Shown piece after piece: positions 21,455 to 47,208 of a stretch of 64,000 nucleotides of DNA. The DNA lies in contig JAPLYG010000012.1 in assembly GCA_026395685.1 (NCBI GenBank), forward strand, positions 7,039-71,038, read 5' to 3'. Positions within the stretch are counted from its first letter, which is position 1. Each line of letters starts with the position of its first letter. The notes under the pieces are model-generated. The model saw only the letters and a list, made by a program, of their open reading frames with translations, was not told the DNA's origin and did not search any database. Source of the DNA: Candidatus Parcubacteria bacterium (GTDB lineage: Bacteria; Patescibacteriota; Patescibacteriia; CAIXNZ01). The translations under genes and the position numbers were made by a program.

Positions 21455-21631
21455 GGTTCTTAGAGAGAAGGTTCTAGAATTTTACTGTTAAGTGAATTGG
21501 TTAAGATGCTTGTAGGTGAGTAGTGTTGAGGTTAAGTTTAAAACACTAAACACTATCCACTTTCTACTTACGAGCATCCTAACCTTAACCTAAACACAAT
21601 TTTTATTATTAATTATTCATAATTTAAGAAT

Positions 21632-23164: not shown

Positions 23165-23281
23165 TTTTTAAGTTTTAATTTTTAAAAAATGATTTAATGT
23201 TTTAATTTCGAATTTAAACATTAAGTAATTAAAAATTGATTATAAATTAAAAATTATAAATTATTCATTTGAACGATTGTT

Positions 23282-24184: not shown

Positions 24185-24264
24185 ACTCGTCGGCCTTAAC
24201 ACTTTAGTGTTAAGGCGATGCACTCAAACACTAAAGTGTTTGAGCCGTAAATAAGGGTCAGGCA

Positions 24265-24318
24265 GCCATTACCGAGGAAATAGCTGAAATTGCCGGAGGT
24301 AAGGCCGCACTGGAATAA
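24265..24318 (+). repeat. Diverged duplicate of the last ~17 codons of atpG including the stop. It is separated from the original by a 76-bp palindrome-containing insert.
   Basis: GCCATTACCGAGGAAATAGCTGAAATTGCCGGAGGTAAGGCCGCACTGGAATAA versus GCGATCACCAAGGAAATAGCGGAAATTGCCGGAGGCAAGGCCGCACTCGAATAA at 24131-24184. Confidence 0.7.
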
Positions 24319-24366
24319 TTTAAAATTCAAAATGCAAAGTGCAATGTTACAAAGCAAAATGAATAA

Positions 24367-25779
<1,413 letters not shown>

Positions 25780-31157: not shown

Positions 31158-34100
31158 ATGTCTGAAACAAAGTCTAAATTCAATACGCAGCAGCAAAAAG
31201 CCATTACTTTTGGTAAGGGGCCGCTTTTGATCGTGGCTGGCGCAGGCACGGGCAAGACAATGGTTATCACTCAAAGAATAGCTCATTTGATTTTGGATCA
31301 AGATGTTAAAACCGATGCCATTTTAGCCTTAACTTTTACGGAAAAAGCAGCCGGGGAAATGCAGGAGCGCGTAGGTAATCTTATGCCTATTGGCTATGTT
31401 GACCTGTGGATATCTACGTTTCATTCTTTTTGCCAGAAAATTTTGGAACATCATGCTTTGGATATTGGTATTCCCAATGATTTTAAATTGCTGGATCAGA
31501 CCGCAGCCTGGCTTTTGGTTCGTCAGAATTTAGAAAAATTTAATTTGGATTATTATAAGCCTTTGGGCAATCCGACTAAATTCATTCATGCCATGCTGTC
31601 GCATTTTTCCCGCTGTAAGGATGAAGAAATTTATCCGGGTCAATATTTGGAGTATGCGGAAAAACAGGAACTTGATCTGGATAGCAAACAGGGCGACGAA
31701 GGCGTCATGGACGAAGTCAAAAGGCTGAAAGAGATTTCCAATGCTTATCATGTTTATCAACAGCTTCTTTTGGATAATAATGCTTTGGATTTTGGCGATC
31801 TGATTAATTACACTTTGAAATTATTCAAGGATCGCAAGAATATTTTGAAAAAATATCAGGAACAGTTTTCATATATTTTAGTTGATGAATTTCAGGATAC
31901 CAATTTCGCCCAATACAACTTAGTTAAACTTTTGGCAGGGGAAAGGAAGAATTTGACTGTGGTGGCTGATGATGATCAGTCAATCTATAAATTTCGCGGA
32001 GCTTCGGTTTCTAATATTTTAAATTTTAAAAATGATTATCCTGAGGCGGCAAATATAGTGCTGACTGAAAATTATCGTTCCTGCCAGGAAATCTTGGATT
32101 TATCATATAATTTTATCCAGTTAAATAACCCTAATCGCCTAGAGGCTCAAAAGAGTTATAAAATAAAGAAAAAATTAAAAGCAAATAAGGATTGCCAGGC
32201 TAATATTGAACATCTGCATTTTAAAACCATTGATGATGAGGTCAGGGGAGTAATTCAAAAAATTTTAGACATAAAAAAACAGTCCCGCGCAGCAGGATCC
32301 GCCTCTGGCAAAGAATTGTCTTGGCAGGACTTTGCGATTTTAGTGCGCGCCAATGACAGCGCTACCAGCTTTATCAATTTTTTGCGTAAAACTGATGTGC
32401 CATACCAGTTTGTGGCTATGCGCGGACTCTATGGCAAGGCAATTATTATGGATATTTTGAATTATTTTAAACTGCTGGATAATTATCATGAAAGCCCAGC
32501 AATTTTTCGTTTGCTCCGCTCGCCGATTGTAAATATTACAGACGAAGAACTTACCATACTTTGCCATTTTTCCAATAAAAAGAATTTTTCTTTATATGAA
32601 TCTTTGAAAATTGCCTCCACTATATTTGGGTTAAGTCCCGAGACTATTTCCCAGATAAATTTCTTTTTATCTTTAGTAGAAAAACATACGGCAATTACCC
32701 GGGAAAAAACCGTTGGTGAAGTAATGATTGCTTTTATGCAGGATTCCAAATATTTGGAAAAAATTATTCAGGCAGACGAAGAAATTGCCAAACAAAATGC
32801 GGATTATCTTAACCAGTTTTATAAGCGCATTAAAAAGTTTGAAGAAAGCGCAACAGACCCGTCTTTGCAGAATTTTATGGCTGAAATGGAGCTGGAGTTG
32901 GAATCAGGCGAAGAAGGCTCATTAAAATTTGACGTTGAGATGGGCCCGGATGTAATTAAAATCATGACAGTTCATGCCGCCAAAGGTTTGGAATTTGAAT
33001 ATGTTTTTATTCCCAATATGGTCGAACAGCGTTTCCCGACTAATAAAAGAGGAGAGCCGATTGAAATGCCTGAAGCTTTGGTTAAGGATATTTTGCCCGA
33101 AGGAGATTTTCATATTCAGGAAGAACGACGTTTATTTTACGTGGCAATGACGCGCGCCAAACAGGGACTATATTTTACTTCAGCTGATGATTACGGCGGT
33201 GCCAGAGCCAAAAAATTATCAAGGTTTTTAACAGAACTCGAGGAAACTAATAAAGGCTTTTCCACCTCCGCTACCACCTACGCTAAAGCTTCGGTGGATC
33301 AAGAAAAACACGTTGAGGCAAATATGGTTGAATTGAGAAAAACAAAGACTAGGTTTGATTTACCCACACAATTTTCTTTTTCCCAGATTGCAGCTTTTTC
33401 AAAATGTCCTTTCCAGTACAAGTTGTCGTTTATTTATAAAATTCCTGTCTTGGGCAAAGGAGTCTTTTCCTATGGCAAGAGTATGCACTCGGCTTTGCAG
33501 AGGTTTTTCGTTTTAGCCAATGAAAGAGCCAATGCCAGTCAGTCAGATTTATTTGGCGATAAAAAAGTAATTAATTCCAAGAAAATCGGTAATTTGGTCA
33601 GTCTGGAGGAATTTAAAAAGATTTTTGAAGAATCCTGGCTGGATGAATGGTACAACACCAAAGAAGATAAAGAAAAATACTACCAAAAGGGCAGGGGATT
33701 CATCAAATTATTTTACGATCAAAATAAAGACCAGGATATACAGACTATGGCTTTGGAAAAGGGTTTTAATATCAAACTGGCTCAGGAATATACGATTCGC
33801 GGTTTTATAGATCGCTTGGATTTACTGCCTGATCAGACTGTGGAATTGATTGATTATAAAACTGGCAATCCCAAGGAAAAATTAACTCCGGAAGAAAAGA
33901 CTCAGTTGCTTTTATACCAGTTAGCCTGTCAGAACTTGCCGGAAATTACCGGTGGTCGCAAGGTTTCAAAATTAACTTTTTATTACATTGACAATAATTC
34001 TCAATTGTCATTTTTAGGTACGGACAAGGAATTGGCTAAGGTTGAAACTGAATTTAGCAATACGATTTCTGAGATCAAGATCAGTAAGTTTGAAGCTCAG

Positions 34101-34163
34101 CCTGAATTTAATAAGTGTAAATTTTGCGATTTTAAGGGTATTTGCGAGTTTAGTATCAAATAA
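31158..34163 (+). CDS. UvrD/PcrA-type SF1 helicase fused to a C-terminal Cas4/AddB-like PD-(D/E)xK nuclease with a Cys cluster
   Basis: GAGTGKT Walker A; DEFQDT; a YRS variant of the YRC motif; C-terminal ...CPFQYKL...CKFCDFKGICEF. Confidence 0.8.
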   Translation: MSETKSKFNTQQQKAITFGKGPLLIVAGAGTGKTMVITQRIAHLILDQDVKTDAILALTFTEKAAGEMQERVGNLMPIGYVDLWISTFHSFCQKILEHHALDIGIPNDFKLLDQTAAWLLVRQNLEKFNLDYYKPLGNPTKFIHAMLSHFSRCKDEEIYPGQYLEYAEKQELDLDSKQGDEGVMDEVKRLKEISNAYHVYQQLLLDNNALDFGDLINYTLKLFKDRKNILKKYQEQFSYILVDEFQDTNFAQYNLVKLLAGERKNLTVVADDDQSIYKFRGASVSNILNFKNDYPEAANIVLTENYRSCQEILDLSYNFIQLNNPNRLEAQKSYKIKKKLKANKDCQANIEHLHFKTIDDEVRGVIQKILDIKKQSRAAGSASGKELSWQDFAILVRANDSATSFINFLRKTDVPYQFVAMRGLYGKAIIMDILNYFKLLDNYHESPAIFRLLRSPIVNITDEELTILCHFSNKKNFSLYESLKIASTIFGLSPETISQINFFLSLVEKHTAITREKTVGEVMIAFMQDSKYLEKIIQADEEIAKQNADYLNQFYKRIKKFEESATDPSLQNFMAEMELELESGEEGSLKFDVEMGPDVIKIMTVHAAKGLEFEYVFIPNMVEQRFPTNKRGEPIEMPEALVKDILPEGDFHIQEERRLFYVAMTRAKQGLYFTSADDYGGARAKKLSRFLTELEETNKGFSTSATTYAKASVDQEKHVEANMVELRKTKTRFDLPTQFSFSQIAAFSKCPFQYKLSFIYKIPVLGKGVFSYGKSMHSALQRFFVLANERANASQSDLFGDKKVINSKKIGNLVSLEEFKKIFEESWLDEWYNTKEDKEKYYQKGRGFIKLFYDQNKDQDIQTMALEKGFNIKLAQEYTIRGFIDRLDLLPDQTVELIDYKTGNPKEKLTPEEKTQLLLYQLACQNLPEITGGRKVSKLTFYYIDNNSQLSFLGTDKELAKVETEFSNTISEIKISKFEAQPEFNKCKFCDFKGICEFSIK

Positions 34164-34286
34164 TTGCAAACTGCTAATTTTTCGATATCTAGTCGTCCAC
34201 ATGCTGGGCGATTTTTTAATTACAGCAACTATTTTTTATGGTATAATATAAACAATAGTAATAATTAAATATTTAAATCCAAGTCT

Positions 34287-36752
34287 GTGATTTTTACCAA
34301 AATCAGCAATAGTAAGATTTGGCATATTTTTGGGGTTGGTATAATACTGATTAGTTTTATTTTTGGTCAGTTTTTTTATGCTTTAAATCTTTACGCCGCT
34401 ACCTTTGTAGAAATTTTTGAAGATACTGTTTACAAAGACGCTGCCAATACGACAGCTGACTGGGAATGGGATACTTCAAGCGCCCATTTAATAAACGGCG
34501 ATTGGCGCAAGGCAGACAATACTGACGATGAGGGTTCGTATGAAATAATTCAAACTGCAGTGATCGGACATTATAATGTTATTTCCGGACCTGATAATAA
34601 AGCGATAGTAATATATACGTCAAATAATATCCTTTATTCAATTAAATGGAATGATGCGGGAGAGTCTGTCTGTGGGGAAGGGATCACTGCATGCTGGACA
34701 AATATTGAGGGCACGGATATCTATCCGGATACACTTGGCACAATATCAGCTCTTAAATTGTCAGTAATTAAAAAATCTGACGGTTACCCAGCAGTGGCCA
34801 TAATTGCAAATGAAACACCGAAAAAATTATATTATGCTCAATATAGCCCGGGTGTCGGGTGGACAGCATCAGACGGTCAAACCCAAAGCTTTGAAATGAT
34901 TTCAGATGCCGCAGCAATTACAGAATATAAATCTTTTTCCTTTAAAGCAGATCAGTATGGCGAGCCCAGTATTGTGTGGTATGAAAAAACAGGGACAAGT
35001 CCGATTATAACAACTATTAAATATACCCGGCTGGATAATGGCGTCTGGAAACATGCTGATCGGACAACTTCTGGTAAGGAAACCATAGTTGTACGCAGTG
35101 GGACTGGATATACTGATTTTAATCCGGATTTTGATTATGTCGGCAGTAATATTTATTTTGCTGCCCAGATTATGAATATATCGTATAGCTCTTATGCCTG
35201 GAAATGGGATGGCGCAAATTGGGAAAATTTAGACGGGACTCATTTTGCTTCAGTGCCGGGAGGATTAGCAGATATCACTCTCTTACAAGCTACTTGTGCT
35301 AGGCCTAGTATTGCAATAAATTCATCAAATATTCCGTATGTAGCATGTACGACAGGTACATCCTCAATTAAAATTGCCCAAAGGCTAGATGGCGCCTGGA
35401 AATATCCTGACGGAATTACTGGCGGAGTTTTGTCTCTGGCCAATTTTACCTATAATATATTAATTGATATAGGCATTGATCGTGATGATAATCTGATGCT
35501 ATGGGAAGTTTCATATCCCACAACAACTACTGAAGCGGAAATATATTTTACCCAATGGAAAAGTGGCGCCTGGAAAAAATCCGACGGAGTTACAACCGGT
35601 TGGGAAGCGGCGAGTAATGTAACAAACGGCCAATTATTAAATGCCTATTATACAAATGATACTTCAACATTTGACCGGCCATATACGGTAGATGAAAATG
35701 GATATCCGATTTTTCTGTTTGTAAATAGCACCGGGACTCCCTCGCCTTATCCCGGATATGTTTCCCGTTATACAGGCAATGATATTAAGGGAGCTGATAA
35801 AACTTCAAATGATCAGGATACTGTTTTTCCTGATAGTAATTCGCAGATTTGGTATCCGGTAATATTTTTTGATTCTGAAACAAAAAATATTTTAGTACTG
35901 GGACAGAATATATCCCAAACCTTGCCTTTTTCAATGTTTAATAATAATGTTTACGATAATACTAATCAGGATTTAGTATCTTCAACAATTGCTACAGCTC
36001 ATAATAATTCAACAATTACCTCGGCCAAATTAACTGTCAGCGAAACAGAGCCTAGCAATACTGCTATTACTTATTATTTGAGTGCCGATGCTGGCAGCCA
36101 TTGGGAGGCAGTTACTCCCGGTGTCAGTCACGATTTTACCAATACTGGCACGGATTTACGCTGGAAAGCAAACTTGACTTCAAATAGCCAGGCAGCGACA
36201 CCCTCTCTTGATTATTTGTATATTGATGTGGACGGTAAAACAGCGGAAACTTCAGGCGATATCACCATCTCAGCCACTGTTGATCCGGAAATGTCTTTTA
36301 ACTTATCTGCCCAGACGTGTGATTTGGAATCTTTTTCCAGTACTGCCATAAAAACATGCAATTATTCCATAACAGTAAATACTAATGCAACCGGAGGTTA
36401 TGTTGCTTATCTTCGGTCTGTTGATGGTTTCAAAAGCGGTTCGAATGAATTAACGCCAGTTAGTGACGGTTTTGTGACTGTTGGGTCACAGGAGTATGGA
36501 GTTGCCACCAGCGATGCTGATTATGCTTCTTTGCAGATAAATAAACAGGTAACTGATTGTACTGCTTTAGATGACACCACCAGTCCGGTCAATGCTACTA
36601 GCCTTACTGCCAGCGATCAGTCATTTGCTAAAGAAGTTTTAGCGGTAGCTGATGAAGAAATAACTGTCTGCCACATAGCTTCGATTTCCGGCTCAACCCC
36701 AGCTGGCGTTTATTCTCAGATAGTCGTTATTACTCTTGTCAGTAATTATTAG
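34287..36752 (+). CDS. Large secreted/anchored surface protein (821 aa) carrying the cluster-specific C-terminal domain
   Basis: N-terminal signal/anchor. C-terminal ~170 aa is homologous to four downstream paralogs: VDPEMSFNL...C...CNY...NTNATGGYVAYLR...EYGVATS...CHIASISGSTPAGVYSQIVVITLVSNY. Confidence 0.6.
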   Translation: MIFTKISNSKIWHIFGVGIILISFIFGQFFYALNLYAATFVEIFEDTVYKDAANTTADWEWDTSSAHLINGDWRKADNTDDEGSYEIIQTAVIGHYNVISGPDNKAIVIYTSNNILYSIKWNDAGESVCGEGITACWTNIEGTDIYPDTLGTISALKLSVIKKSDGYPAVAIIANETPKKLYYAQYSPGVGWTASDGQTQSFEMISDAAAITEYKSFSFKADQYGEPSIVWYEKTGTSPIITTIKYTRLDNGVWKHADRTTSGKETIVVRSGTGYTDFNPDFDYVGSNIYFAAQIMNISYSSYAWKWDGANWENLDGTHFASVPGGLADITLLQATCARPSIAINSSNIPYVACTTGTSSIKIAQRLDGAWKYPDGITGGVLSLANFTYNILIDIGIDRDDNLMLWEVSYPTTTTEAEIYFTQWKSGAWKKSDGVTTGWEAASNVTNGQLLNAYYTNDTSTFDRPYTVDENGYPIFLFVNSTGTPSPYPGYVSRYTGNDIKGADKTSNDQDTVFPDSNSQIWYPVIFFDSETKNILVLGQNISQTLPFSMFNNNVYDNTNQDLVSSTIATAHNNSTITSAKLTVSETEPSNTAITYYLSADAGSHWEAVTPGVSHDFTNTGTDLRWKANLTSNSQAATPSLDYLYIDVDGKTAETSGDITISATVDPEMSFNLSAQTCDLESFSSTAIKTCNYSITVNTNATGGYVAYLRSVDGFKSGSNELTPVSDGFVTVGSQEYGVATSDADYASLQINKQVTDCTALDDTTSPVNATSLTASDQSFAKEVLAVADEEITVCHIASISGSTPAGVYSQIVVITLVSNY

Positions 36753-36801
36753 AAGATTAAGAAAAAAATATAGATAATTATATCTAAAACGAATACGAAA
36801 A

Positions 36802-38148
36802 ATGAATAGGTGCCTTAAAAAAAATAAATTTTTTCTGAATATTTTAATCCTGATGGTTTTATTTTTATTGGGCAATTGTTATATTGTCAGAGCTGCTAGC
36901 TTGTTTAGTTTAAGCGATAGAGTCACCAGACATGCGCCCTTGACGCCTTCTGACCACGCGATTACTTTTACTACGCCAAGCGGTTTGGGCGAAGCAGGAG
37001 ATTATATCAGAATCAGTTTTGACGGCGGTTTTGATTTAAGCTCAATAATTTTTTCCGATATTAGTTTGTCTCACGGCCCAATTTCAGGCTTGGAAATTAC
37101 TGAAACAGTATCTGCTGCGCCTTTAGCCACTAACTGGGGATTGACCATTTCCGGCAACCATCTTGATTTAATCCATCCTACTAATTCAGCTAATGGTGAT
37201 ATTGCGCCCAATGATATTATATATATTAAAGTCGGCGGGACTCATAAGATAATTAATCCGGCAACTATCGGCTCTAAAGTTATTTCTTTAGTAATTTATA
37301 ACAGTTCCAATATAATAATTGACAGCGGACGTCTGGCAATACCTGTTACCCAGGATCAGGTAGGTGTTGGCGGCGCACCATTTGGAACTTTACCCATACC
37401 CGTGACTTTGAATTTTCCTTATAGTGTCACCACAAATTCCCTGGATCTTGATTGGACTGAATATGTAGAATTATTGATTCCAAATCCGCAATTTGACCGA
37501 TATGAATTATATATGGGTACCAGCCCCGGAGTCACAAATTTAAACGGGATATTACTGCCCCCAGATCCTCCAAGCGATGCCTATGACATTACCAAAACGA
37601 TTTTTTCCATTGATGGCTTAGCGCCTAACCGCACTTATTATTTTGTAGTCTATGTTTATAATGACCTTGGCTATTATGCTGCTTCAAATGAAGTTTATGC
37701 TACTACGCAAAGTGGCGGTATAATTTGGCCGTCTTTGCCCGCAGCTCCTACTATAAATTCCAGAATTTGCCCTATTTTTTTGCCAAATACCGCAATTGAC
37801 GGCACTAAACCGGCAGGGACTGCGATTTATGTAAACGGCAGTACTCAGAATATAAATTACCCCACTGATTTATTATGGAATAAGCTGGTAAATCTGGGCT
37901 TGGGTACAAATTTATTTTTGATATATGCACAGGACAATTATGGGCAAAACAGCAGTATGCTGACTGCGACTGTAAATCGCTGCGAAGTAGGTGATACAAA
38001 TTGCAATTTATTGGTTGATGATTTTGATCTGGCAGGCTTGGCCGGACATTGGGAGACCAACTGGTGTTATGCTGATTTCAATGAAGACGGTATTGTTGAT
38101 GATTTTGATCTGTCAGGTCTAGCTGCACATTGGGATTCGGTGTATTGA
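36802..38148 (+). CDS. Secreted protein with a dockerin-like C-terminal pair of Ca-binding repeats
   Basis: Signal peptide. C-terminal CEVGDTNCNLLVDDFDLAGLAGHW...DFNEDGIVDDFDLSGLAAHW matches the dockerin DxNxDGxVDxxDL duplicated pattern. Confidence 0.5.
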   Translation: MNRCLKKNKFFLNILILMVLFLLGNCYIVRAASLFSLSDRVTRHAPLTPSDHAITFTTPSGLGEAGDYIRISFDGGFDLSSIIFSDISLSHGPISGLEITETVSAAPLATNWGLTISGNHLDLIHPTNSANGDIAPNDIIYIKVGGTHKIINPATIGSKVISLVIYNSSNIIIDSGRLAIPVTQDQVGVGGAPFGTLPIPVTLNFPYSVTTNSLDLDWTEYVELLIPNPQFDRYELYMGTSPGVTNLNGILLPPDPPSDAYDITKTIFSIDGLAPNRTYYFVVYVYNDLGYYAASNEVYATTQSGGIIWPSLPAAPTINSRICPIFLPNTAIDGTKPAGTAIYVNGSTQNINYPTDLLWNKLVNLGLGTNLFLIYAQDNYGQNSSMLTATVNRCEVGDTNCNLLVDDFDLAGLAGHWETNWCYADFNEDGIVDDFDLSGLAAHWDSVY

Positions 38149-38264
38149 GAAAATAGGTAATAGGAAATAAGTAATAAGGTAAAGGAAAAATATTAAGTAA
38201 TAATTCATTGGTAATCTGTAGTATGGATATGATTATTTAATAAATTTTTTCCAATCCGTATTTC

Positions 38265-40583
38265 TTGCTTCTTACTTCTTATTTCAAATTTAATAATATG
38301 AACAAGCTATCCAAAATTATTTTATTCTTATTATTGCTGGGGTTATTTTTGCCTTATTTGCCGGCTCAGGCAGCAGGAAATGCGATTTTTCGCCTGACCA
38401 GCGCCAAAACTGACTATTATGTCGGTGAAAATATTTATATTGATGTTATGGTTGAACCAAATGGCGAAAGCATTAATACCGTAAGATTAATTTCGGATTT
38501 TACAGGCGCCGATGTTTTAAATGTCTCTGATTTTAATTTGGGGACTGCATGGCCGACTCAAAGTCCCGGCAGGGAATTAAATAATACGACTGATCATATA
38601 AATGTCGGCGGATTTATTTTAGTTGAATCAATAAATGTAAATTCAAAATTTGGCACTTTAATTTTTAAGGCAAATCAGATTGGTACGTCCACAATTTCTG
38701 TGGCAACAGGTTCGCATTTGATTTCTCCGGATCAGATTGAAAGGTTAAATATCTTTGCTAGTCAAAATATCACCATCAATGTAATCGGTAATCCGCCTTT
38801 GCCGCCACCCCCACCACCGGCAAATCATGCTCCTGTTTTTTCTGCCATTGCTAATAAACAGATTAATTTGGGAGAAACTATTACTTTTCCAGTTTCAGCC
38901 ACTGATTCAGACAACGATTTGATAAATTTAAGCTGGACTATACCTAGTAGCGCAAATTTTAATAATGTAATCAATGATTCTGCTGCAGTCAGCGGTAATT
39001 TTTCCTGGACGCCTGCTTCGCAGGGTATATATACGGTAACTTTTACAGCTACTGACAATAATGTTGATGCCAAAACTTCAGTTTTGACTGTAGGTATTGG
39101 CGTCAATGTGCCTGCTCCTGCTCAAAATCATGCCCCTGTTTTCGAGCCAATCTTGGAAAAAACAGTCAATGCCGGTGAAATTTTAACTTTTACTGTTTCA
39201 GCTACTGATCCTGATGGCGATAATGTGACTTTGAGTTTGGAGCCATTAGAAACTGCCTCTTTAACTCCCATAACCTCGGGTATAACTTCTTCTTCACGTT
39301 TTAGCTGGACGCCTAAAAATTTTGGAATATATTATTTAGTTTTTAAAGCCAAGGATGATAATGCCGCTAGCCAGGAAAGCACGCAAACAGTGCGTATTAC
39401 AGTTTTTGGCGGTCAATGTCCTCCCTGTAGCAGCGGTGGCGGCGGTGGAGGCGCAACCTGTCCCATTCCCCAGTGTGAAAAACAGGATTTTAAAAAGCCT
39501 ATAAATAAGACTTTACCGGTTATTACTTCACCAACGCATCCCAGCCAGGAAATTTGGTATAGTAAAAATACGCCGCAATTTGTCTGGGAAGTTGCCGAAG
39601 AAAACTTAGGTTATGTTTTTAATATAGATCAAAATCCGCTTTCTGATCCGGCTATCGGCTATTTCTTTTCTCAGGATAAGGTTTTTTCTTTCAGCCAGGT
39701 AGCTGACGGCTTTTGGTATTTTCATTTAAAAGTAAAATACTCAGACGGCTATGGTCCGACTGCTCATTATCAGGTAAAAATTGACACCACGGCTCCGGAA
39801 TTTTTTCTGCCCAGTATAGAAGGCACTAAGCTATATTTTTCCGCTATAGATAAGCATTCTGGTCTAGCTTATTTTGAAATGAAGACTGATGACGGCAAAT
39901 GGCAAAAAATTCAGAGTCCATACACATTTACCAGCGAGGACCAAAATGCCAAGGTTATGACTTTGCGGGCTGTGGATAACAGCGGCAATGCGATTGAAGC
40001 CAGAATTGATTTGCCTAAAATGGAATTAATCAAGGAAGAACCCAAAAAGTATATTTTAAATCAGCCGAAATTTATAATAGAGCCGCTTATAATTGATAAA
40101 ATTGACTTTCCGGTGATTCGTGGCCGAGCCATGCCGAGCGCCAAAGTATTTTTATTCATTTCAACTGAGCCCCAAACAATAATTTATACCCTGGCTGATT
40201 ATCAGGGTAATTGGGTCGCTTATGCGGATAAAGAATTAGCGCCGGCGAAATATAGCATTTACGGCATTGCTAACTTAAATTTTACTGACTCTCCTCCTTC
40301 GGAAAAAGTTTATTTCAGCATCACTAAAGAACAGCAAAAGTTTATTTTTCACTGGTCATCTACGTGGCCTTGGTGGATATTAATGCTTTTGGTGATAATT
40401 TCCGGCGCCGTTGCCATTTACTTGTTATTAAAAGTAAAAAAATATTATTTAACAAAAAGAATTTTTCGCAAGGCATATAAAATAGGCAAGCATGACGGTA
40501 AAATTATAGAAAAAATAAATGAAATCAAACAACAAAAAAATCAGCTCAAAAAAATTGCTGCCAAGAGTAAAAACAGGCGTTAA
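38265..40583 (+). CDS. Membrane-anchored surface protein with two cadherin-like (He_PIG-type) repeats
   Basis: Signal peptide. Poly-Pro linker (PLPPPPPPA), then NHAPVF...TFPVSATDSDND and NHAPVFEP...TFTVSATDPDGDNVTLS repeats. A Cys/Gly-rich segment (CPPCSSGGGGGGATCPIPQCE) follows. C-terminal TM plus Lys-rich tail. Confidence 0.55.
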   Translation: MLLTSYFKFNNMNKLSKIILFLLLLGLFLPYLPAQAAGNAIFRLTSAKTDYYVGENIYIDVMVEPNGESINTVRLISDFTGADVLNVSDFNLGTAWPTQSPGRELNNTTDHINVGGFILVESINVNSKFGTLIFKANQIGTSTISVATGSHLISPDQIERLNIFASQNITINVIGNPPLPPPPPPANHAPVFSAIANKQINLGETITFPVSATDSDNDLINLSWTIPSSANFNNVINDSAAVSGNFSWTPASQGIYTVTFTATDNNVDAKTSVLTVGIGVNVPAPAQNHAPVFEPILEKTVNAGEILTFTVSATDPDGDNVTLSLEPLETASLTPITSGITSSSRFSWTPKNFGIYYLVFKAKDDNAASQESTQTVRITVFGGQCPPCSSGGGGGGATCPIPQCEKQDFKKPINKTLPVITSPTHPSQEIWYSKNTPQFVWEVAEENLGYVFNIDQNPLSDPAIGYFFSQDKVFSFSQVADGFWYFHLKVKYSDGYGPTAHYQVKIDTTAPEFFLPSIEGTKLYFSAIDKHSGLAYFEMKTDDGKWQKIQSPYTFTSEDQNAKVMTLRAVDNSGNAIEARIDLPKMELIKEEPKKYILNQPKFIIEPLIIDKIDFPVIRGRAMPSAKVFLFISTEPQTIIYTLADYQGNWVAYADKELAPAKYSIYGIANLNFTDSPPSEKVYFSITKEQQKFIFHWSSTWPWWILMLLVIISGAVAIYLLLKVKKYYLTKRIFRKAYKIGKHDGKIIEKINEIKQQKNQLKKIAAKSKNRR

Positions 40584-41268
40584 AATTTTGGTTTTAGCAA
40601 TTGTATTAACATTGTCTAAGGAAACCATTGCCGGCATGGCCAGTGATAATTATCGGATTTGGGTGGATACTTTTGATGCTGCAGGCGGAGCAACCAATAC
40701 TAGTGGTTTTAAGATCAATTCAAATTTATCTGATTTTAATGCTACGCAAAGTCAAAGCTCTAATTTTAGCCAAAAAATAGCTTTTTCTGGCATTTTGGAT
40801 GAGCCTACAGTCGGCTTTAACGTACAATCCGTAACCTTGGATTTTGGTCTTCTGTCAACCAATTCAACAAAATATGCTGTCCATACTTTTTCTGCGTTTA
40901 CCAATGCCCAAGAAGGCTATACAATTAAAATTTATGGCGATCCTTTGAAATCAAATGATTATATAATTCAGGAAATAGGCACTACAGCTTCGGCACCGAC
41001 TTTAGGCACTGAGCAATTTGGTATTAATTTAATGTTAAACAGCACTCCTTCAGCAGGCGCAAATCCTACCGGCGGCATTGGCCAGGCAGCAGTCAATTAC
41101 AACCAGGCTAATAAGTTTGCTTATCATGCCGGTGAAACTATTGCTTATGCTGAAAGCTATTCTTATCAAACCGATTATACCGTCACTGCAATTGTAAATA
41201 TTGCCGATGACACGCCGGCGGGAGCTTATACTACAATCTTGACTTATGAATTTATTCCGGTCTTTTGA
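40519..41268 (+). CDS. Small secreted paralog carrying the cluster C-terminal domain
   Basis: Ends DDTPAGAYTTILTYEFIPVF and carries the shared domain. Start is uncertain (overlaps the upstream gene; an alternative ATG lies at 40638). Confidence 0.45.
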   Translation: MKSNNKKISSKKLLPRVKTGVKILVLAIVLTLSKETIAGMASDNYRIWVDTFDAAGGATNTSGFKINSNLSDFNATQSQSSNFSQKIAFSGILDEPTVGFNVQSVTLDFGLLSTNSTKYAVHTFSAFTNAQEGYTIKIYGDPLKSNDYIIQEIGTTASAPTLGTEQFGINLMLNSTPSAGANPTGGIGQAAVNYNQANKFAYHAGETIAYAESYSYQTDYTVTAIVNIADDTPAGAYTTILTYEFIPVF

Positions 41269-41474
41269 GCCTAATTATCAGGCAAATCAATTTTGAAAAG
41301 TTTTGAGATTTGTTCGGGGTAAAGTTATCCACAGTTTTTATGTGCTAAGATAAAGTAATTTTTTAAATTATGGTATAATATAAACAGATATAGAAAGATT
41401 GGGGACAACTAGAATTTTTTTAAATATAAATCAATAATATATATTGATAATTAAAATTAATCTTAATACAAATT

Positions 41475-42578
41475 ATGAACAAATTCTTGAAAGTTGTAGG
41501 TATCTGGTCAATAGTTGCCATTGTATTTTCAATGAGCTTATTGGCTCCCATGCAAACTCAAGCTGCCGGCCAGCTGGGGTTGATTTCTGTTTTGCTAAAA
41601 GCAACAGACAGTGAAACAGGCAATAATGTATATGCAGTTAGCAGCCAGGTGCCATATACTTTTGTTAAATTTACGCCTATTGCCGATTTAGAGATTGATG
41701 ACGGTATTAAAGTTACTTTTACAAGCTTTACTGATTCGGTAGAAACTGCTGATGTGACTGTAACTCAAAATGCTGAAAGTTTAACTAAGACTGTTGTTGC
41801 TTCAGGGGGAAGTGGTGTCATACAAATTGAAATGGACTCGGCGACTACTGGCTCAAAAGTTAGTCCTGTTACTGTAAAAATCACCGGCGATGCAACAGAT
41901 TTAGTTACTCCGGGAAGTGCAAATACTTACACTGTTAACATTGAGGTTTATGATTTAGGAGCGGATGCTCATTTCGGTGGCGGTGATGATGTCTTACAGG
42001 ATAGCGGTGCGGCCGGTGTTATTATAGGCACTGCTGCTGGTTATCAAATCGGTATTACAGGTACAGTTGATCCGACTTTATCTATGGCTTTGACTCAGAT
42101 CGGCAATGATACTCCTACTTCAACCTGCGCTTTGGGAACTCTTACCAAAGATTTTGTAGAAACCTGCGGTTATGATGCTAAGATTTCTACCAATGCTACC
42201 GGCGGCTATACAGCGTATATCAGGGCAGGGGGCGGATTAATGAGCGGTGCTAATGAAATTGACAAAGTAGCTGAAGGAGATGATATTGATTTCGGAGTCG
42301 AAGAATATGGAATATCATCAAGTGATACAGGTACTGATATAATCAATAATAACTCGGGAACAAGTTGCACTCTTTTAGATCACACTACTACGCCAGCGAT
42401 GCCCGCAGATCCATTGACTAATGGCGGTGGTTTATATGTAGATAGATCATTTGCTTCTTCTACAGGCACGGCTTCTAATGAAAGGACAACAGTCTGTCAT
42501 GCAGCTGGTATTACAGCTGTTACTCCGGCAGGCAATTATACCCAGACTGTAACTATCACTATTGTCGGCAATTTTTAA
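41475..42578 (+). CDS. Secreted paralog with the cluster C-terminal domain
   Basis: VDPTLSMAL...C...CGY...STNATGGYTAYIR...EYGISSS...CHAAGITAVTPAGNYTQTVTITIVGNF. Confidence 0.6.
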   Translation: MNKFLKVVGIWSIVAIVFSMSLLAPMQTQAAGQLGLISVLLKATDSETGNNVYAVSSQVPYTFVKFTPIADLEIDDGIKVTFTSFTDSVETADVTVTQNAESLTKTVVASGGSGVIQIEMDSATTGSKVSPVTVKITGDATDLVTPGSANTYTVNIEVYDLGADAHFGGGDDVLQDSGAAGVIIGTAAGYQIGITGTVDPTLSMALTQIGNDTPTSTCALGTLTKDFVETCGYDAKISTNATGGYTAYIRAGGGLMSGANEIDKVAEGDDIDFGVEEYGISSSDTGTDIINNNSGTSCTLLDHTTTPAMPADPLTNGGGLYVDRSFASSTGTASNERTTVCHAAGITAVTPAGNYTQTVTITIVGNF

Positions 42579-42620
42579 AAATAAATAATTAATATAAAAA
42601 TAATAATTAAAAGGGGTAAT

Positions 42621-43619
42621 ATGAAAACAAAAAAATTTTTATTGCTGGCTGTAGTAATGCTGATTTGCGGATTAGCAATTCCTTTTGCCAGTAATGCCGT
42701 TACTGTTTCACCTCCAATTTTGGAGATTGAAGCAGCTAAAGGCCAGGTAATAACACAGTCAATTAAAGTTCGCAATGAAAGTTCTGATTTGGTTACTTAT
42801 TATTTGACATCTCAAAAATTTATTGCCGCCGGTGAAGGCGGAGCGCCGCAATTTGTGGAAGGAAAAGTGGAAGATGTTGACCTGGCATCCTGGATCAAGT
42901 TCCAGTATGACAGTATTAGTATCCCAGGCGGTCAGACAGTAGAAGTGCCTTTTACTATTGTTGTTCCTGAATTTGCCGGTCCGGGTGGTCATTATGCAGC
43001 TATATTTTTAAGCACTTTTCCGCCAGATGCAAAAGCTAATACTTCTCAAGTATCTATTGCCAGCAGAATCGGCACTTTGGTGCTCGTCAAAATTGCAGGC
43101 GAAGTGAAAGAATCAGCTGAATTATCAGAGTTTACAGCTGCTAAATCATATTCTTCCTTACCGGTAACTTTTGGAATCAGAGTAAAAAACATAGGTAATG
43201 TTCACGTGAAGCCAGTAGGATCAATCGTTATTAAGAATATGTTCGGTTCAGTCGCCGGCAATGTGATAGTCAATGAAGAAAGCGGAAACGTTTTGCCGGA
43301 TTCAATCAGAAAGTATGAAGCAAGCTGGGTGAAAAATCCAAATGCAGTCGGGGCTACGACATTCTGGGGAAAATATCGGGAAGAAAAGGAAAATTATGCT
43401 TTTGGCAAATATACCGCTGATTTAATGCTTTCTTATGGCACTGCAGGTAAACCTTTGCAGGCATCTGTAAGTTTCTTGGTCATTCCTTGGCATGTAATCT
43501 TAGTCAATTTGGTACTGATCATCATCGTTGTTATTATAATTTACTTATTAGTCAAGAGATATAATGCCTGGTTGATTACTAAATACGGCAAAAAACAAGA
43601 AAAGAAAGCTAAGAAATAA
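42621..43619 (+). CDS. CscA/DUF916-like surface protein (signal peptide, Ig-like beta-sandwich, C-terminal TM anchor with a basic tail)
   Basis: VTVSPPILEIEAAKGQVITQSIKVRNESSDLVTYYL (chaperone/DUF916-like N-domain pattern). C-terminal VILVNLVLIIIVVIIIYLLVKRYNAWLITKYGKKQEKKAKK. Confidence 0.45.
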   Translation: MKTKKFLLLAVVMLICGLAIPFASNAVTVSPPILEIEAAKGQVITQSIKVRNESSDLVTYYLTSQKFIAAGEGGAPQFVEGKVEDVDLASWIKFQYDSISIPGGQTVEVPFTIVVPEFAGPGGHYAAIFLSTFPPDAKANTSQVSIASRIGTLVLVKIAGEVKESAELSEFTAAKSYSSLPVTFGIRVKNIGNVHVKPVGSIVIKNMFGSVAGNVIVNEESGNVLPDSIRKYEASWVKNPNAVGATTFWGKYREEKENYAFGKYTADLMLSYGTAGKPLQASVSFLVIPWHVILVNLVLIIIVVIIIYLLVKRYNAWLITKYGKKQEKKAKK

Positions 43620-43734
43620 AGTGCAATTTGAAATTTTATTGTAATTGAATAAGAACATTTACAAAGAGGGACTGTGTGGAATCATGGTCCCTCTTTAAGT
43701 AATAAGCTATTAGTTTCATTATAAAAGTAAAGCA

Positions 43735-44145
43735 ATGAAAAAAATAATTAACATTATAATAGTGGCTGTTTTTTTGAATTTTTTTATGCTTTCTTTTGGC
43801 TATGGTCAGCAAAATGGGGTTGGTGTCGTGGGCATCGTGCCGGAAACTGATTTAAATAAAAATGTAAGACAGCTGGATGTGCAAACACCAGAAAATAGAC
43901 CAATTTTTAAGGAAAATAAATATTTATATTTTTTTGAAAAAGCACTGGGTTTAAGCCAGGAGACTGTAACAGATTCAGGAATGAATATAGAAACAAGGCA
44001 GACTGCCTATGACCAAACAGCAAGCAAATTGCTGCTCTGGGGCTTGCTTTTGATTATGGCGGTTCTGATTTGGATTATATTGAGCATTATAGATAGATTT
44101 ATTTTCAAACAGCAAAAGCATTATAAACATGCTCATGGATTGTAA
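43735..44145 (+). CDS. Small membrane protein (signal peptide + C-terminal TM)
   Basis: Hydrophobic termini. Lies within the surface cluster. Confidence 0.4.
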   Translation: MKKIINIIIVAVFLNFFMLSFGYGQQNGVGVVGIVPETDLNKNVRQLDVQTPENRPIFKENKYLYFFEKALGLSQETVTDSGMNIETRQTAYDQTASKLLLWGLLLIMAVLIWIILSIIDRFIFKQQKHYKHAHGL

Positions 44146-44190
44146 AATTTAGCGAAGTTAATAAGCGGAATAAGACAGGCAAGATAAAAT

Positions 44191-45225
44191 ATGAAAAAAA
44201 AACATCAACATAATATAATCATTCTCGTATGTATTTTATTGTCAGCTTTTCTTTTCCATCAGGCAAATGCAGGTCTGGTCAGTAATTTTAGTGACCAGTT
44301 AAGCAGGCTGGCAATCTCCACTAGCTCAAATCATACGCTTAATTTTACCATTTCATCTGATTTTTCCGCGGGAAAAACTCTGGAGCTGTATTTTGAATCC
44401 GGTTTTGATTTGAGTGATATTGATTATACTGACATAGATTTTAAGGATGACGGTGAAAATAAGAATTTGGGTGAAACTCCCGGAAACGGCGTCGGCAGTA
44501 ATATTGGTATTTCTGTTTCGGGCCAGACTATTATTTTTATTCAAAATGACACTGATTCTATTTCTGCGTCATCAGTCATAACCATTTTAATCGGCTTAAA
44601 TGCCAATCATCAGTTGCTAGGCACCATGCAGATGATTAATCCTGATCTGGGGGGAATATATAAAATCAGTTTAGCTGGCAATTTCGGCGATATGGGGACA
44701 ATCTCAGTACAGATTTTAAGTACTGACGGCGTCGGATTAAATGCTTCTATTGAGCCGGCAATGTCATTTAGCATCAGGAATTCTGAAGATTCGGAAAATT
44801 TTAGCGGTTGCAGTTTTAATAATCCATCAATCAGTTCTGTCAGTGAATGCAGCTTCAGGTTGGCAGCAGAAACTAATGTTTCTTCTGGTTTTCAGGTATG
44901 GTTACGTTCCGACGGAGATTTGCGCAATATTAACGGTACAATCGCCAAAGTTATTGAAGACCAGGAAATTACTGCCGGCAATGAGGCATTTGGACTGGCT
45001 TTACAATCCGGAACAGGTATAAATGAAGCAGGCGATTTTACTGACGATGAAACCCCAGTTTCATCCACAGATTCACTTTTAATTTATACAAATTCAGTGT
45101 ATAATTATATACAGGGGGAGTTATCCACAACCTCTATAATTACACTTAAATTAGCGATTTCACATACTACCAAGGCAGGTCATTACAGTCAAGCGTTTAT
45201 TTTTACATTATTGCCAAATTATTAA
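44191..45225 (+). CDS. Secreted paralog with the cluster C-terminal domain (divergent)
   Basis: IEPAMSFSIR...C...C...SSGFQVWLRSDG...EAFGLALQ...TKAGHYSQAFIFTLLPNY. Confidence 0.5.
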   Translation: MKKKHQHNIIILVCILLSAFLFHQANAGLVSNFSDQLSRLAISTSSNHTLNFTISSDFSAGKTLELYFESGFDLSDIDYTDIDFKDDGENKNLGETPGNGVGSNIGISVSGQTIIFIQNDTDSISASSVITILIGLNANHQLLGTMQMINPDLGGIYKISLAGNFGDMGTISVQILSTDGVGLNASIEPAMSFSIRNSEDSENFSGCSFNNPSISSVSECSFRLAAETNVSSGFQVWLRSDGDLRNINGTIAKVIEDQEITAGNEAFGLALQSGTGINEAGDFTDDETPVSSTDSLLIYTNSVYNYIQGELSTTSIITLKLAISHTTKAGHYSQAFIFTLLPNY

Positions 45226-45263
45226 ATAATTAATTCAGATATTTTATTCATTTTTTTTATTTT

Positions 45264-47060
45264 ATGATAAAAAATAAACAAAAATTTTTGGCGCTGTTCG
45301 TAGTTTTAGTTTTGCTAAGTTCATTTTTGGGTTCTGTCCCAAAGCAGGCACAAGCTGCCAGTCTCATTTCTCACTGGGAGTTTAATGGCAGTACGGCAGA
45401 TTCAGCAGGTACAAATAACGGGACATTGGAGGGCAGTGCTAGTGTAGCAAATAATTATTTAGATGTTGTTAGTTCAACTGCTGATTATGTTTCAGTCCCT
45501 GATGATGACAGCTTGAGTTTTGTATCCGGAGGAGTTGACCAGGCATTTTCAGTTTCCACTTGGGCAAAGCTGGATCCGGCAGGCAGCTTGTCTTTTCTCA
45601 AGAAAGGAAATATTGATGATTCAAATTTAGAATATCAATTTTCTTATAATTATTTGGGTAATGTGGAGCTTCTACTTTATGATGATAGTCATACTCCTGG
45701 TAATTATATAAGTATTCAATATGCTTTGGGGAATGATTACACAATGGACTACTTGAGTGAACACTGGATGCTTTTAACAGCTACTTATGACGGAGGAGGA
45801 GCAAGTGCCGTACTTAATTTATATGTCAATGGTTCTGTGGTAGATGCATTTAGCAGCGGAAGTAATTATGATAAAATGGCAAATGGAAATGGAATTCTGA
45901 AAATTGGTTCTGCGTCAGATGGAAATATTGATGATTTGAGAATTTATTCCGGAGAATTAACTGCTAATGAGGTGAGCACGCTTTTTTCCAGCCAGGCAAG
46001 TGACTTTCGCAGCACTTCAATTGCGACGCAGTTTTTGGATGCAGATGGCAACAATGTAGTAGCAGTTAGTACACCTGTAAACACTGCAAAAGTAATATTT
46101 TCTCCTCAAAATGAATTAAATAATAGTGATGGAGTTTTAATTAATTTCCAGTCAGATTTTGCTTTAGGCACTATTGATGACAGTTCAGTTGCGATAAGTC
46201 AGATGCATACAACAACTGATCTTACAGTTGAAACAGACGGTATAGACAAAAGCGGGCAAAATGTCAGGATAATTCTTGATGATACGGCCGGCGCTGGTGA
46301 TCGCAAGTCAGAACAGGTTACAGTTACGATTACTGACGCCATAACTACGCCGAGTGCTGGTACGTACATCATTATAGCTGAAACTTATGATTTGGGCAGT
46401 GATAATGCCTGGGGTGGGGTAGGAGGAGCGGCTGATACTTTAGAAGGTACAGCTTCAGCAGCAGCTTTTTTTGGTGATTATATAGTCAATATTAGCGGTT
46501 CAGTTGATCCGACATTAACCCTGACTTTGGCCAATTGGACTGATGCTAATGGTGATGTTGCTACCGCAAATACCTGTAATTTAAGTCCAGCTGCAAGATC
46601 TTTAACAAGCGCTGCGATTAATTTGTGCGGATATACTGCTAGCATATCTACAAATGCAACTTCCGGTTATATTGCCTATATTCGTGATAGCGGAGATTTT
46701 TCTTCCGGCAGTGATGTTTTGGCAGATGCGACAGGAACAGCTTCAATGAGCGCAAATCCAGCGGATGCTATTTATGGTGTGGCAACTGATTTTGCAGGTG
46801 GCGGCGTAGCCATTCAGTTTATAAATGATGTAGACGGTGATACTTTTAGAAATACGGGTGATCTTTATGCTATTATAACGAATGGTAATCGCTCCGGAGT
46901 CAATGCTAGTGGTATTACCGAAACTGATCAAAGCTTTGCCAAAAGCACTGAACCTGCGGATGATACTATTGTTTTAGGCCATATGGCAGCCATTGCCGGT
47001 GATACTCCGGCTGGAACATATAGTACGACTACTGTGATTACAGCCGTGGGAAATTTTTAA
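45264..47060 (+). CDS. Secreted protein: N-terminal LamG-like (Laminin_G_3) domain plus the cluster C-terminal domain
   Basis: LamG hallmark IDDLRIYSGELTANEVSTLF. C-terminal VDPTLTLTL...C...CGY...STNATSGYIAYIR...TPAGTYSTTTVITAVGNF. Confidence 0.6.
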   Translation: MIKNKQKFLALFVVLVLLSSFLGSVPKQAQAASLISHWEFNGSTADSAGTNNGTLEGSASVANNYLDVVSSTADYVSVPDDDSLSFVSGGVDQAFSVSTWAKLDPAGSLSFLKKGNIDDSNLEYQFSYNYLGNVELLLYDDSHTPGNYISIQYALGNDYTMDYLSEHWMLLTATYDGGGASAVLNLYVNGSVVDAFSSGSNYDKMANGNGILKIGSASDGNIDDLRIYSGELTANEVSTLFSSQASDFRSTSIATQFLDADGNNVVAVSTPVNTAKVIFSPQNELNNSDGVLINFQSDFALGTIDDSSVAISQMHTTTDLTVETDGIDKSGQNVRIILDDTAGAGDRKSEQVTVTITDAITTPSAGTYIIIAETYDLGSDNAWGGVGGAADTLEGTASAAAFFGDYIVNISGSVDPTLTLTLANWTDANGDVATANTCNLSPAARSLTSAAINLCGYTASISTNATSGYIAYIRDSGDFSSGSDVLADATGTASMSANPADAIYGVATDFAGGGVAIQFINDVDGDTFRNTGDLYAIITNGNRSGVNASGITETDQSFAKSTEPADDTIVLGHMAAIAGDTPAGTYSTTTVITAVGNF

Positions 47061-47208
47061 CTATATTGCTTACATAATGATAAAAAGACTCTGTTAAATG
47101 CAGGGTCTTTTAGGTTAGTAAAAAATAATAAAAGTTATTCACAATATAAGGCAAAATCAGGTCAAAATCGCTACAAAAATATTTAAAAAAGTGGTATAAT
47201 AAAATTAG

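Follow-up and report, generated by a model that had tools for sequence, protein, structure and literature searches.

We analyzed a 64-kb stretch of DNA from a Candidatus Parcubacteria bacterium (the window; G+C content 37%), in which two adjacent genes on the forward strand encode a secreted protein with a dockerin-type C-terminal tail and a membrane-anchored protein with a cohesin-type N-terminal domain. The first of these proteins (448 residues) is identical to P0001, a protein from a metagenome-assembled genome (MAG) of Candidatus Parcubacteria that is named "fibronectin type III domain-containing protein" in NCBI. Its parts follow one another in the order signal peptide, pilin-type N-domain, linker, fibronectin type III (FN3) domain, immunoglobulin (Ig)-like domain and dockerin. 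The second (761 residues from an ATG at 38298, with an alternative TTG start at 38265) consists of a signal peptide, a cohesin, a Pro-rich linker, two PKD/Big_9 domains, a Gly/Cys linker, beta domains, a transmembrane helix and a basic cytoplasmic tail. Scans of the window with Rfam and for tRNAs gave no match. The features of the two genes are as follows.

36802..38148, + strand: gene for the dockerin-bearing protein, 448 residues
36802..36894, + strand: signal peptide, residues 1–31, hydrophobic core 11–29, ending ...VRA/AS, based on hydropathy and sequence
36895..37377, + strand: pilin-type N-domain (residues 32–165) and conserved linker (residues 166–192, ...DSGRLAIPVTQDQVGVGG), based on homology to the pilin encoded at 44191..45225
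37393..37707, + strand: fibronectin type III domain, residues ~198–302
37759..37977, + strand: presumed Ig-like beta domain, residues ~320–392, CPIF...GTKPxGT.I.VNG...W...LxLGxN, directly before the dockerin
37978..38145, + strand: dockerin-type module, residues 393–448, two symmetric repeats
37993..38049, + strand: dockerin repeat 1, Ca-loop D398–D409 (D-T-N-C-N-L-L-V-D-D-F-D), helix residues 407–416
38074..38142, + strand: dockerin repeat 2, Ca-loop D425–D436 (D-F-N-E-D-G-I-V-D-D-F-D), helix residues 434–447
37768..37770, 37981..37983, 38002..38004 and 38065..38067: cysteine codons C323, C394, C401 and C422, respectively
38298..40583, + strand: gene for the cohesin-bearing, membrane-anchored protein, 761 residues, identical to P0189
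38367..38789, + strand: cohesin-type module, residues 24–164 of the 761-residue protein, ~140 residues
38823..39404, + strand: two PKD/Big_9 Ig-like spacer domains, the number of which differs among orthologues
40374..40430, + strand: C-terminal transmembrane helix (WILMLLVIISGAVAIYLLL), followed by a Lys/Arg-rich tail

Nucleotides 37975..38148 are in frame with the first gene and span residues 392–448 and the stop codon; the C-terminal 57 residues of the protein are NRCEVGDTNCNLLVDDFDLAGLAGHWETNWCYADFNEDGIVDDFDLSGLAAHWDSVY. A first-pass annotation of the DNA, made from the sequence alone, had described this region as a dockerin-like duplicated calcium-binding segment at the C-terminus of a secreted protein, and our analyses bear this out. 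Dockerins consist of two tandem repeats of ~22 residues, each with a 12-residue calcium-binding loop (D or N at positions 1, 3, 5, 9, and 12) and a helix. In the tail such loops are present at D398..D409 and D425..D436, each with D or N at all five positions, and each is immediately followed by a leucine and a helix-forming stretch that is predicted to be helical. Both peptides quoted by the first-pass annotation were found, and the second fits the canonical dockerin pattern exactly; the first, however, begins at D398, three residues before "CNLL", and has N-L rather than D-G at loop positions 5–6. The pattern D.[ND].[ND]..[VIL][DN]..D[LIVFY] occurs only twice in the six reading frames of the window, as does a looser form of it, and both occurrences are in this tail (residues 393–448), 27 residues apart. 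A hidden Markov model (HMM) built from the orthologous tails also found no second dockerin copy in the window.

Comparison of the protein with its homologues revealed how strongly the tail is conserved. We identified 30 full-length homologues with 45–84% identity that can be aligned from end to end, and all of them come from Parcubacteria-type MAGs or metagenomes. Mean pairwise identity in this family is 0.73 in the tail, 0.66 in the linker, and 0.51–0.59 in the three folded domains, so that the tail is the best-conserved segment and the linker the second. Across 27 orthologous tails, loop positions 1, 3, 5, 9, and 12 are near-invariant, which suggests that the tail binds Ca2+, and the helix residues DDFDLxGLAxHW are near-invariant as well and alike in both repeats. 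Family-wide, the two repeats are nearly identical at positions 9–13 (DDFDL), 15–17 (GLA), and 19–20 (HW). As read from the alignment, this near-identity is the internal symmetry that is associated with the dual binding mode of type I dockerins.

The FN3 domain, the sole domain of the 448-residue protein that was confidently detected by Pfam (residues 203–299, E 1.2e-5), is optional in the family, being absent from P0033, P0036, and the orthologue at locus L005. Relatives of ~330 residues (P0031–P0036) were considered as pilins that share the N-domain only; this was rejected, as the two that were inspected, P0033 and P0036, are family members that lack FN3 and have the dockerin. The beta-helix protein P0040 was rejected as a dockerin match, since its similarity is to the Ig-like domain, the motif of which recurs in it.

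Searches of family and structure databases placed the tail with dockerins. The first-pass annotation had proposed a search with Pfam Dockerin_1 (PF00404, gathering threshold 22.9 bits) as a check. This family was the top, and essentially the only, match of the tail, with 14.0 bits from a scan of the full-length protein and, for the isolated tail, 18.9 bits (E 0.0018). It matched 26 of the 27 distinct orthologous tails (E ≤ 1; best E 4e-6) and its threshold was exceeded by two of them, those of P0020 (25.8 bits) and P0008 (25.2 bits), but not by the window copy. A profile of the tail gave 12 matches at E ≤ 10 among PDB sequences, at least nine of which are dockerins, and the best of these were the dockerins of C. 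cellulolyticum Cel5A (E 0.0036) and C. perfringens NagH (E 0.008). When 1.84 billion representative proteins were searched with the same profile, 3312 clusters were matched at E ≤ 0.001. Ten of the best clusters were scanned with Pfam, and all eight that are not members of the family scored 46–130 bits for Dockerin_1. The top scorers against the tail profile (e.g., P0041, P0043, and P0044) consist almost wholly of 4–16 tandem dockerin-like repeats.

The second check proposed, structure prediction, gave the paired layout that had been expected. An AlphaFold2 model based on the 27-sequence alignment has the order loop-helix, loop-helix (predicted local distance difference test score, pLDDT, 73.4). 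In a Foldseek search of the PDB with this model, all 21 matches were dockerins, and the top match, 2vn5_B, had a probability of 0.99 and template modelling (TM) scores of 0.74/0.78. Based on these data, the tail (residues 393–448) is very likely a dockerin homologue and a divergent member of that superfamily. That the motif instead arose by chance, or is a generic calcium loop of the EF-hand or FG-GAP type, might be suspected from the position of the window copy below the Pfam threshold and from weak EF-hand_8 and EF-hand_1 matches in some orthologues. This explanation is largely refuted, and we consider it essentially excluded, by the rank of Dockerin_1 as the top family in nearly all tails, by the absence of FG-GAP and thrombospondin families from the Pfam matches of the window copy and the orthologous tails, by the identity of every structural match as a dockerin, and by the duplicated, symmetric 27-residue spacing and C-terminal position, which are typical of dockerins.

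Cysteines in and near the tail show two patterns of conservation. C394 and C401 lie on either side of the start of loop 1; both are present in 21 of the 30 orthologues and both absent in the other nine, and this perfect covariation suggests a disulfide within loop 1. C323, at the start of the segment that is presumed from its sequence to have an Ig-like fold (residues ~320–392), and C422, in the linker between the repeats, are invariant in the orthologues, and a disulfide between them may staple the dockerin to the preceding domain.

The first-pass annotation had seen no obvious cohesin in this DNA and had suggested that neighboring beta-sandwich proteins could be partners of the dockerin. Structure prediction overturned the first statement and gave the second a more specific form than had been guessed, as the N-terminal domain of the product of the very next gene (38298..40583) is, in its predicted structure, a cohesin fold. 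The AlphaFold2 model of this domain is all-beta, has a pLDDT of 95.1 and a predicted TM score of 0.89, and agrees with the nine-stranded beta-sandwich (jelly-roll) of ~140 residues that defines cohesins. Of its 50 best PDB matches in Foldseek, 49 were cohesins (E 2.6e-7 to 1e-5, TM scores 0.63–0.79), and the highest TM score (0.77/0.79) was to the non-cellulosomal cohesin of Archaeoglobus fulgidus (2XDH).

Sequence comparisons connected this domain to recognized cohesins by way of its relatives. The proteins P0277, which is named "cohesin domain-containing protein" in NCBI, and P0296 have the same overall architecture as the 761-residue protein, and their C-terminal parts align with it at E 2e-33 and 3e-22, respectively. 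The N-domains of P0277 and P0296 reach 39 and 31 bits, respectively, with the Cohesin family of Pfam (PF00963, gathering threshold 24.1 bits) and align with the window N-domain at E 0.001. A comparison by hhalign of 25 orthologous N-domains with the cohesin domains of these two proteins gave a probability of 97% and E 8e-11. Cohesin was also the commonest Pfam family among the orthologous N-domains, yet it was matched by only 4 of the 25, all below threshold (best E 3.2e-4). The cohesin N-domain is the most conserved part of its protein family. The isolated domain retrieved only two fragments in a word-indexed homologue search, and the full-length protein was used as the query instead. Endonuclease IV and uL4, which appeared as PDB profile matches of the cohesin domain, were at chance level and were rejected.

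The pairing of the two genes was found to be constant. When the window was translated in all six frames, HMMs of the dockerin tail and the cohesin domain each matched a single site. Both HMMs were also used to scan 12 other loci with a member of the family (11 distinct contigs), which were drawn from four contig look-ups and from eight representative genomes in GTDB with the labels Falkowbacteria, Buchananbacteria, Uhrbacteria, or Parcubacteria. In all 12, the cohesin gene was the next gene after the dockerin gene and had the same orientation. This was so even at locus L005, the cohesin protein of which is 33% identical to that of the window and the dockerin protein of which lacks FN3. In addition, 17 pairs of matches across the two lists of homologues lie on contigs of equal size, and the locus-tag numbers of five NCBI-named dockerin/cohesin pairs are 5 or 10 apart. 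A consensus scan found no terminator-like site between the two genes.

We conclude that the adjacent cohesin is probably the partner of the dockerin. A different explanation is that the tail is a dockerin-like, calcium-binding cap that has no cohesin partner and either stabilizes the Ig-like domain or binds glycans of the wall or host, with the adjacent cohesin-fold domain having an unrelated ligand. Many dockerin-like modules do occur in organisms without a recognized cohesin, as the 3312 clusters matched by the tail profile illustrate, a paper on bacteria of the Candidate Phyla Radiation (CPR) has speculated that dockerin-domain proteins target host glycans (PMC10633639), and the invariant C323 and C422 would suit a tail that is stapled to the domain before it. 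We nevertheless regard such a cap as distinctly improbable. This is because the only cohesin fold and the only dockerin fold in the window are encoded by neighboring genes, because that adjacency was kept in every other locus examined, because each module is better conserved than any other part of its protein, and because the helix faces are identical in both repeats, as in dockerins with a dual binding mode.

P0277 is an Aminicenantia protein, and at its locus (L006, 5255..8011, in an Aminicenantia MAG) there are two tandem paralogues, each with a cohesin, beta domains, and a transmembrane helix, the second paralogue lying upstream of P0277. No dockerin gene adjoins them, so that our evidence for the adjacency rule is limited to the Parcubacteria family; the tandem paralogues also indicate that the membrane-anchored cohesin architecture exists outside the CPR. 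Locus L010 (CAZPVP010000003.1) is titled "uncultured Gammaproteobacteria bacterium", yet holds a Parcubacteria-type dockerin-cohesin operon, and this bin is probably mislabelled.

The two genes lie within a cluster of Pam-type pilus genes, which spans 34287..50721 in the window. In the description of Pam pili, a pilin has an N-domain that is a beta-sandwich, then a linker strand, and finally a C-domain with a truncated Ig-like fold, and subunits are joined by donor-strand exchange, in which each C-domain is completed by the linker of a neighboring subunit (bioRxiv 10.64898/2026.03.03.709456). The same preprint proposed that PamT, which has a C-domain only, forms the tip, that PamC and PamD are membrane-anchored chaperones, and that PamR (an N-terminal strand, two FnIII domains, and a transmembrane helix) stops growth and anchors the pilus. 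It also reported that pam operons adjoin ATP synthase genes and a tail-fiber-like gene and that Pam pilins are found mainly in Saccharimonadia and Microgenomatia, with no report of them from the present group of Parcubacteria, and it does not mention dockerins or cohesins (bioRxiv 10.64898/2026.03.03.709456). The remaining features of the cluster and its surroundings are as follows.

18981..25779: ATP synthase genes, upstream of the cluster
34287..36752, + strand: first cluster gene, 821 residues, with an unrecognized Trp/Tyr-rich N-terminal region of ~650 residues and a Pam-type pilin C-domain; candidate adhesin subunit
40519..41268, + strand: PamT-like tip pilin, acceptor C-domain only (CPR_Pam_pilin_C 128.7 bits, CPR_pilus_PamT 155 bits)
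41475..42578, + strand: Pam-type pilin with N-domain and acceptor C-domain (CPR_Pam_pilin_C E 8e-11)
42621..43619, + strand: candidate membrane-anchored pilus chaperone, with signal peptide, ectodomain of ~260 residues, C-terminal transmembrane helix (292–310), and basic tail
44191..45225, + strand: Pam-type pilin, paralogous to the dockerin protein in N-domain and linker
45264..47060, + strand: Laminin_G_3 (ConA-like lectin) domain fused to a Pam-type pilin C-domain
47209..50721: fiber-like protein, 1170 residues, with an N-terminal transmembrane segment, three Laminin_G_3 stretches, and a Bdello_MAT_N domain

Assignment of the cluster to the Pam type is based on its pilins with acceptor C-domains. 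The NCBIfam models CPR_Pam_pilin_C and CPR_pilus_PamT (NF058581, NF058579; cut-offs 55 and 240 bits, respectively) matched four genes that neighbor the pair. The product of 40519..41268 was above the cut-off for the first model and below it for the second, and matches to CPR_Pam_pilin_C below the cut-off were obtained for 34287..36752 (E 4.5e-9), 41475..42578, and 44191..45225 (E 1e-6). BLAST joined the C-terminal ~165 residues of the products of the genes that start at 34287, 41475, 44191, and 45264. Both of the neighbors reported for pam operons, the ATP synthase genes and the fiber-like gene, are present in the window, and MAGs with the labels Falkowbacteria, Buchananbacteria, and Uhrbacteria contain homologous clusters. 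PDB sequence searches with the full cohesin protein and with a cluster pilin were empty and did not match the models of PamA and PamB (PDB 25PZ and 25QA). Scans of the cluster proteins found no family match for the product of 42621..43619, which is a candidate PamC/D-like protein by architecture only.

The cohesin gene shares its last 65 nucleotides (40519..40583) with the PamT-like gene, which suggests tight coupling. The same two genes overlap at loci L001 (14065..14084) and L005 (5478..5488). Upstream of the first cluster gene, a terminator-like site (34191..34213) is followed by a promoter-like site (34219..34247), both seen in a consensus scan only.

Comparison of the dockerin protein with the pilins of its own cluster showed where it belongs. 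Its residues 7–164 share 31% identity with the N-domain of the pilin encoded at 44191..45225 (E 7e-12), and its orthologue P0009 is 37% identical to the same pilin over 184 columns (E 4e-21), in an alignment that extends through "...GNFGDSGKLATAIFADQVGV" up to the start of the C-domain of the pilin. At that boundary the resemblance to a standard Pam pilin ends, as the 448-residue protein has no match to the Pam pilin C-domain and has the FN3 domain, the Ig-like domain, and the dockerin in its place. It is not built like PamR either, which unites donor strand, FnIII domains, and C-terminal transmembrane helix in a single protein; the dockerin protein has no transmembrane helix after its signal peptide, and the helix is on the cohesin protein. 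Judged by homology, the dockerin protein is a pilin derivative and not a standard pilin, and its linker would be the donor strand. In one homologue, P0013, an N-domain segment (alignment A1, columns ~130–200; DIDFLDDGIS..KNLGAIPGTGAGSDIGVAFSGQTITF) is closer to the pilin at 44191..45225 than to its own family, which looks like recombination between paralogues.

These features lead us to propose a model for how the two proteins might work together. Both genes are part of a Parcubacteria form of the Pam pilus operon of the CPR, with assembly of the pilus by donor-strand exchange. The linker of the 448-residue protein would complete the C-domain of the last ordinary pilin, and the protein would then stop growth of the pilus at its cell-proximal end because it lacks an acceptor domain; for a subunit that is able to donate a strand and unable to accept one, the growing, cell-proximal end is the only possible place. 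Its dockerin would subsequently bind, in a Ca2+-dependent manner, the cognate cohesin, i.e., the N-terminal module of the product of the next gene, the C-terminal helix of which would lie in the cytoplasmic membrane. A stalk of about six beta-sandwich domains (PKD and others), which by our estimate looks long enough to cross the wall, would hold the cohesin off the membrane, and the pilus would thereby be tethered to the cell non-covalently. Two polypeptides joined by cohesin and dockerin would thus take the place of the single PamR of Ca. Mycosynbacter. Our analyses show the motif and its conservation, the predicted folds of both modules and the homologies that support them, the constant gene order, and the arrangement of domains; calcium binding, cohesin-dockerin binding, incorporation into the pilus, and polarity are steps of this model that we infer.

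The model as a whole, with a dockerin-cohesin pair, a terminator derived from a pilin, and a membrane anchor of the pilus, is one that we favor with modest confidence. Since the dockerin and the cohesin are both encoded in a pilus operon, the pair may well fasten the base of the pilus to the cell, although on this particular function we are about evenly balanced. More tentatively still, it is possible that the Parcubacteria have a donor-strand-exchange pilus in which terminator and anchor are split between two polypeptides and joined by a cohesin-dockerin plug. The first-pass annotation had expected that a dockerin-type module in a reduced-genome bacterium would point to a modular surface assembly, and this was right in spirit, except that the assembly would be the base of a pilus and not a cellulosome.

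Several of our results weigh against this interpretation. For the dockerin, the tail of the window copy is below the Dockerin_1 cut-off (18.9 versus 22.9 bits), its structural model is of moderate confidence (pLDDT 73), and its Foldseek E-values are weak (≥0.3), the last because the model has only 59 residues. For the cohesin, Pfam gave no match to the domain of the window copy even at E ≤ 10, and the PDB sequence-profile search with the domain found no cohesin. The count of one dockerin and one cohesin applies to the 64-kb window. For the pilus, most of the Pam-pilin calls of neighboring genes are below the NCBIfam cut-offs, and the polarity from tip to base rests on predicted complexes in the preprint. 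Finally, a comparison of the pilin linker with just the linker of the window copy gave no significant similarity, as 393 of 2000 shuffles reached an equally high score, and the claim of linker homology therefore rests on the alignment of the orthologue P0009.

The main rival to the model is that the cohesin-dockerin pair is real and displays the 448-residue protein as a free-standing surface protein, such as an adhesin or a wall-associated protein, outside of the pilus. In that case, the pilin-like N-domain would represent a beta-sandwich that was exapted, and location in the operon would reflect co-regulation only. Non-cellulosomal cohesin-dockerin pairs that serve for tethering only are known, and one of them, C. 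perfringens NagH/NagJ, is among our matches; in addition, the linker-only comparison of the window copy described above was not significant. However, the homology to the pilin of the operon spans the N-domain up to the boundary of the C-domain, the linker ranks second in conservation within the family, and a donor without an acceptor is the very architecture that a terminator needs. Moreover, the cluster holds no other candidate for a terminator or anchor. A transmembrane segment beyond the signal peptide was found in only three of its proteins, namely the cohesin protein, the candidate chaperone (42621..43619), and the fiber-like protein (47209..50721, N-terminal), and a survey of the cluster proteins by hydropathy found no separate PamR-like protein. 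We therefore consider free-standing display unlikely; the calcium-binding cap without a partner is a weaker rival than this one.

Among known systems, the closest to the tail are the type I dockerins (PF00404; e.g., C. cellulolyticum Cel5A, PDB 2VN5/2VN6), which were its best match in both sequence and structure. Like the tail, they have ~60 residues, lie at the C-terminus, contain two repeats of calcium-binding loop and helix, and have an internal repeat symmetry, which in 2VN5 is the basis of dual binding. In contrast to them, the window dockerin has N-L at positions 5–6 and a cysteine at position 4 of loop 1, helices that end in H-W, and the extra cysteines C394/C401 and C422. Its loop positions 10–11 are D-F, in place of what we take to be the usual S-T recognition pair of type I dockerins. 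In cellulosomes, carbohydrate-active enzymes bear the dockerins and a scaffoldin bears several cohesins. The window system differs in that it has one dockerin and one cohesin and no carbohydrate-active enzymes; family scans of the cluster proteins found no glycoside hydrolase or CBM family. We read the tail as a non-cellulosomal, type-I-like dockerin.

The use of cohesin and dockerin as a plug outside of cellulose degradation is shared with the A. fulgidus cohesin (2XDH) and C. perfringens NagH-NagJ (2OZN), the NagH dockerin being the second-best sequence match of the tail. What sets the window pair apart from these is its position in adjacent genes of a pilus operon, with the cohesin on a membrane stalk and the dockerin on a pilin derivative. 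In systems of the C. thermocellum CipA-SdbA type (type II cohesin, X-module-dockerin; 5K39 was among our matches), a cell-bound cohesin likewise holds an extracellular assembly through one dockerin, and the X-module before that dockerin may be compared with the Ig-like module directly before the window dockerin. The window anchor, however, is a transmembrane helix and not an SLH domain, and the cohesins and dockerins that Foldseek ranked first were of type I.

As a terminator, the 448-residue protein would have a counterpart in PapH of the chaperone-usher P pili, which donates a strand, cannot be extended, and ends pilus growth at the base. The likeness lies in a terminator that is able to donate. 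Unlike the window protein, PapH keeps the pilin fold, stays in the usher, and has no separate docking module. With PamR of Ca. Mycosynbacter amalyticus, the protein pair would share the proposed role, including strand donation to the last pilin, a stop to elongation, and a tie to the membrane through FnIII-type spacers (bioRxiv 10.64898/2026.03.03.709456). PamR, however, is one polypeptide with its own transmembrane helix and an N-terminal donor strand, whereas at the window locus the job would be split by the cohesin-dockerin joint and the donor would be a pilin-type linker that follows a full pilin N-domain.

It is mainly for holding cellulosomes together that cohesin-dockerin pairs are known. 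Dockerins, cohesins, and non-cellulosomal pairs of them were all known previously, Pam pili have only newly become known, and passing mention has been made of dockerin domains in a Saccharibacterium (PMC10633639). A full-text literature search found no paper that links cohesin and dockerin to a pilus, to pilus anchoring, or to Pam pili, or that describes the present pair. If our interpretation is correct, this would be the first case in which a cohesin and a dockerin form a mechanical joint between a pilus and a cell. As such a joint would be non-covalent and Ca2+-dependent, it could also act as a point of regulated release, which would explain the easy shedding of Pam pili.

Neither a partner nor a role is known for hundreds of dockerin-like modules outside of cellulosomes, and one such module here gains a partner and a job that are concrete and testable. 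The pair is one-to-one, was always found side by side, and belongs to a pilus operon of ultra-small, probably host-dependent bacteria. It bears on the question of how Pam pili are held in lineages that lack a membrane anchor of the PamR type, and the cluster extends the Pam system to the group of Falkowbacteria, Buchananbacteria, and Uhrbacteria. Should the joint be confirmed, it would represent a natural, compact, and genetically linked plug-and-socket pair, which would be of interest for studies on host attachment in the CPR and, as a small orthogonal cohesin-dockerin pair, for protein engineering.

During our examination of the DNA upstream of the cluster, we noted a gene for an AddA/UvrD-type helicase-nuclease (window 31158..34163, 1001 residues) that has no intein. 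Its Buchananbacteria orthologue (L004 3294..7367, 1357 residues) holds an intein (Hint, Intein_splicing).

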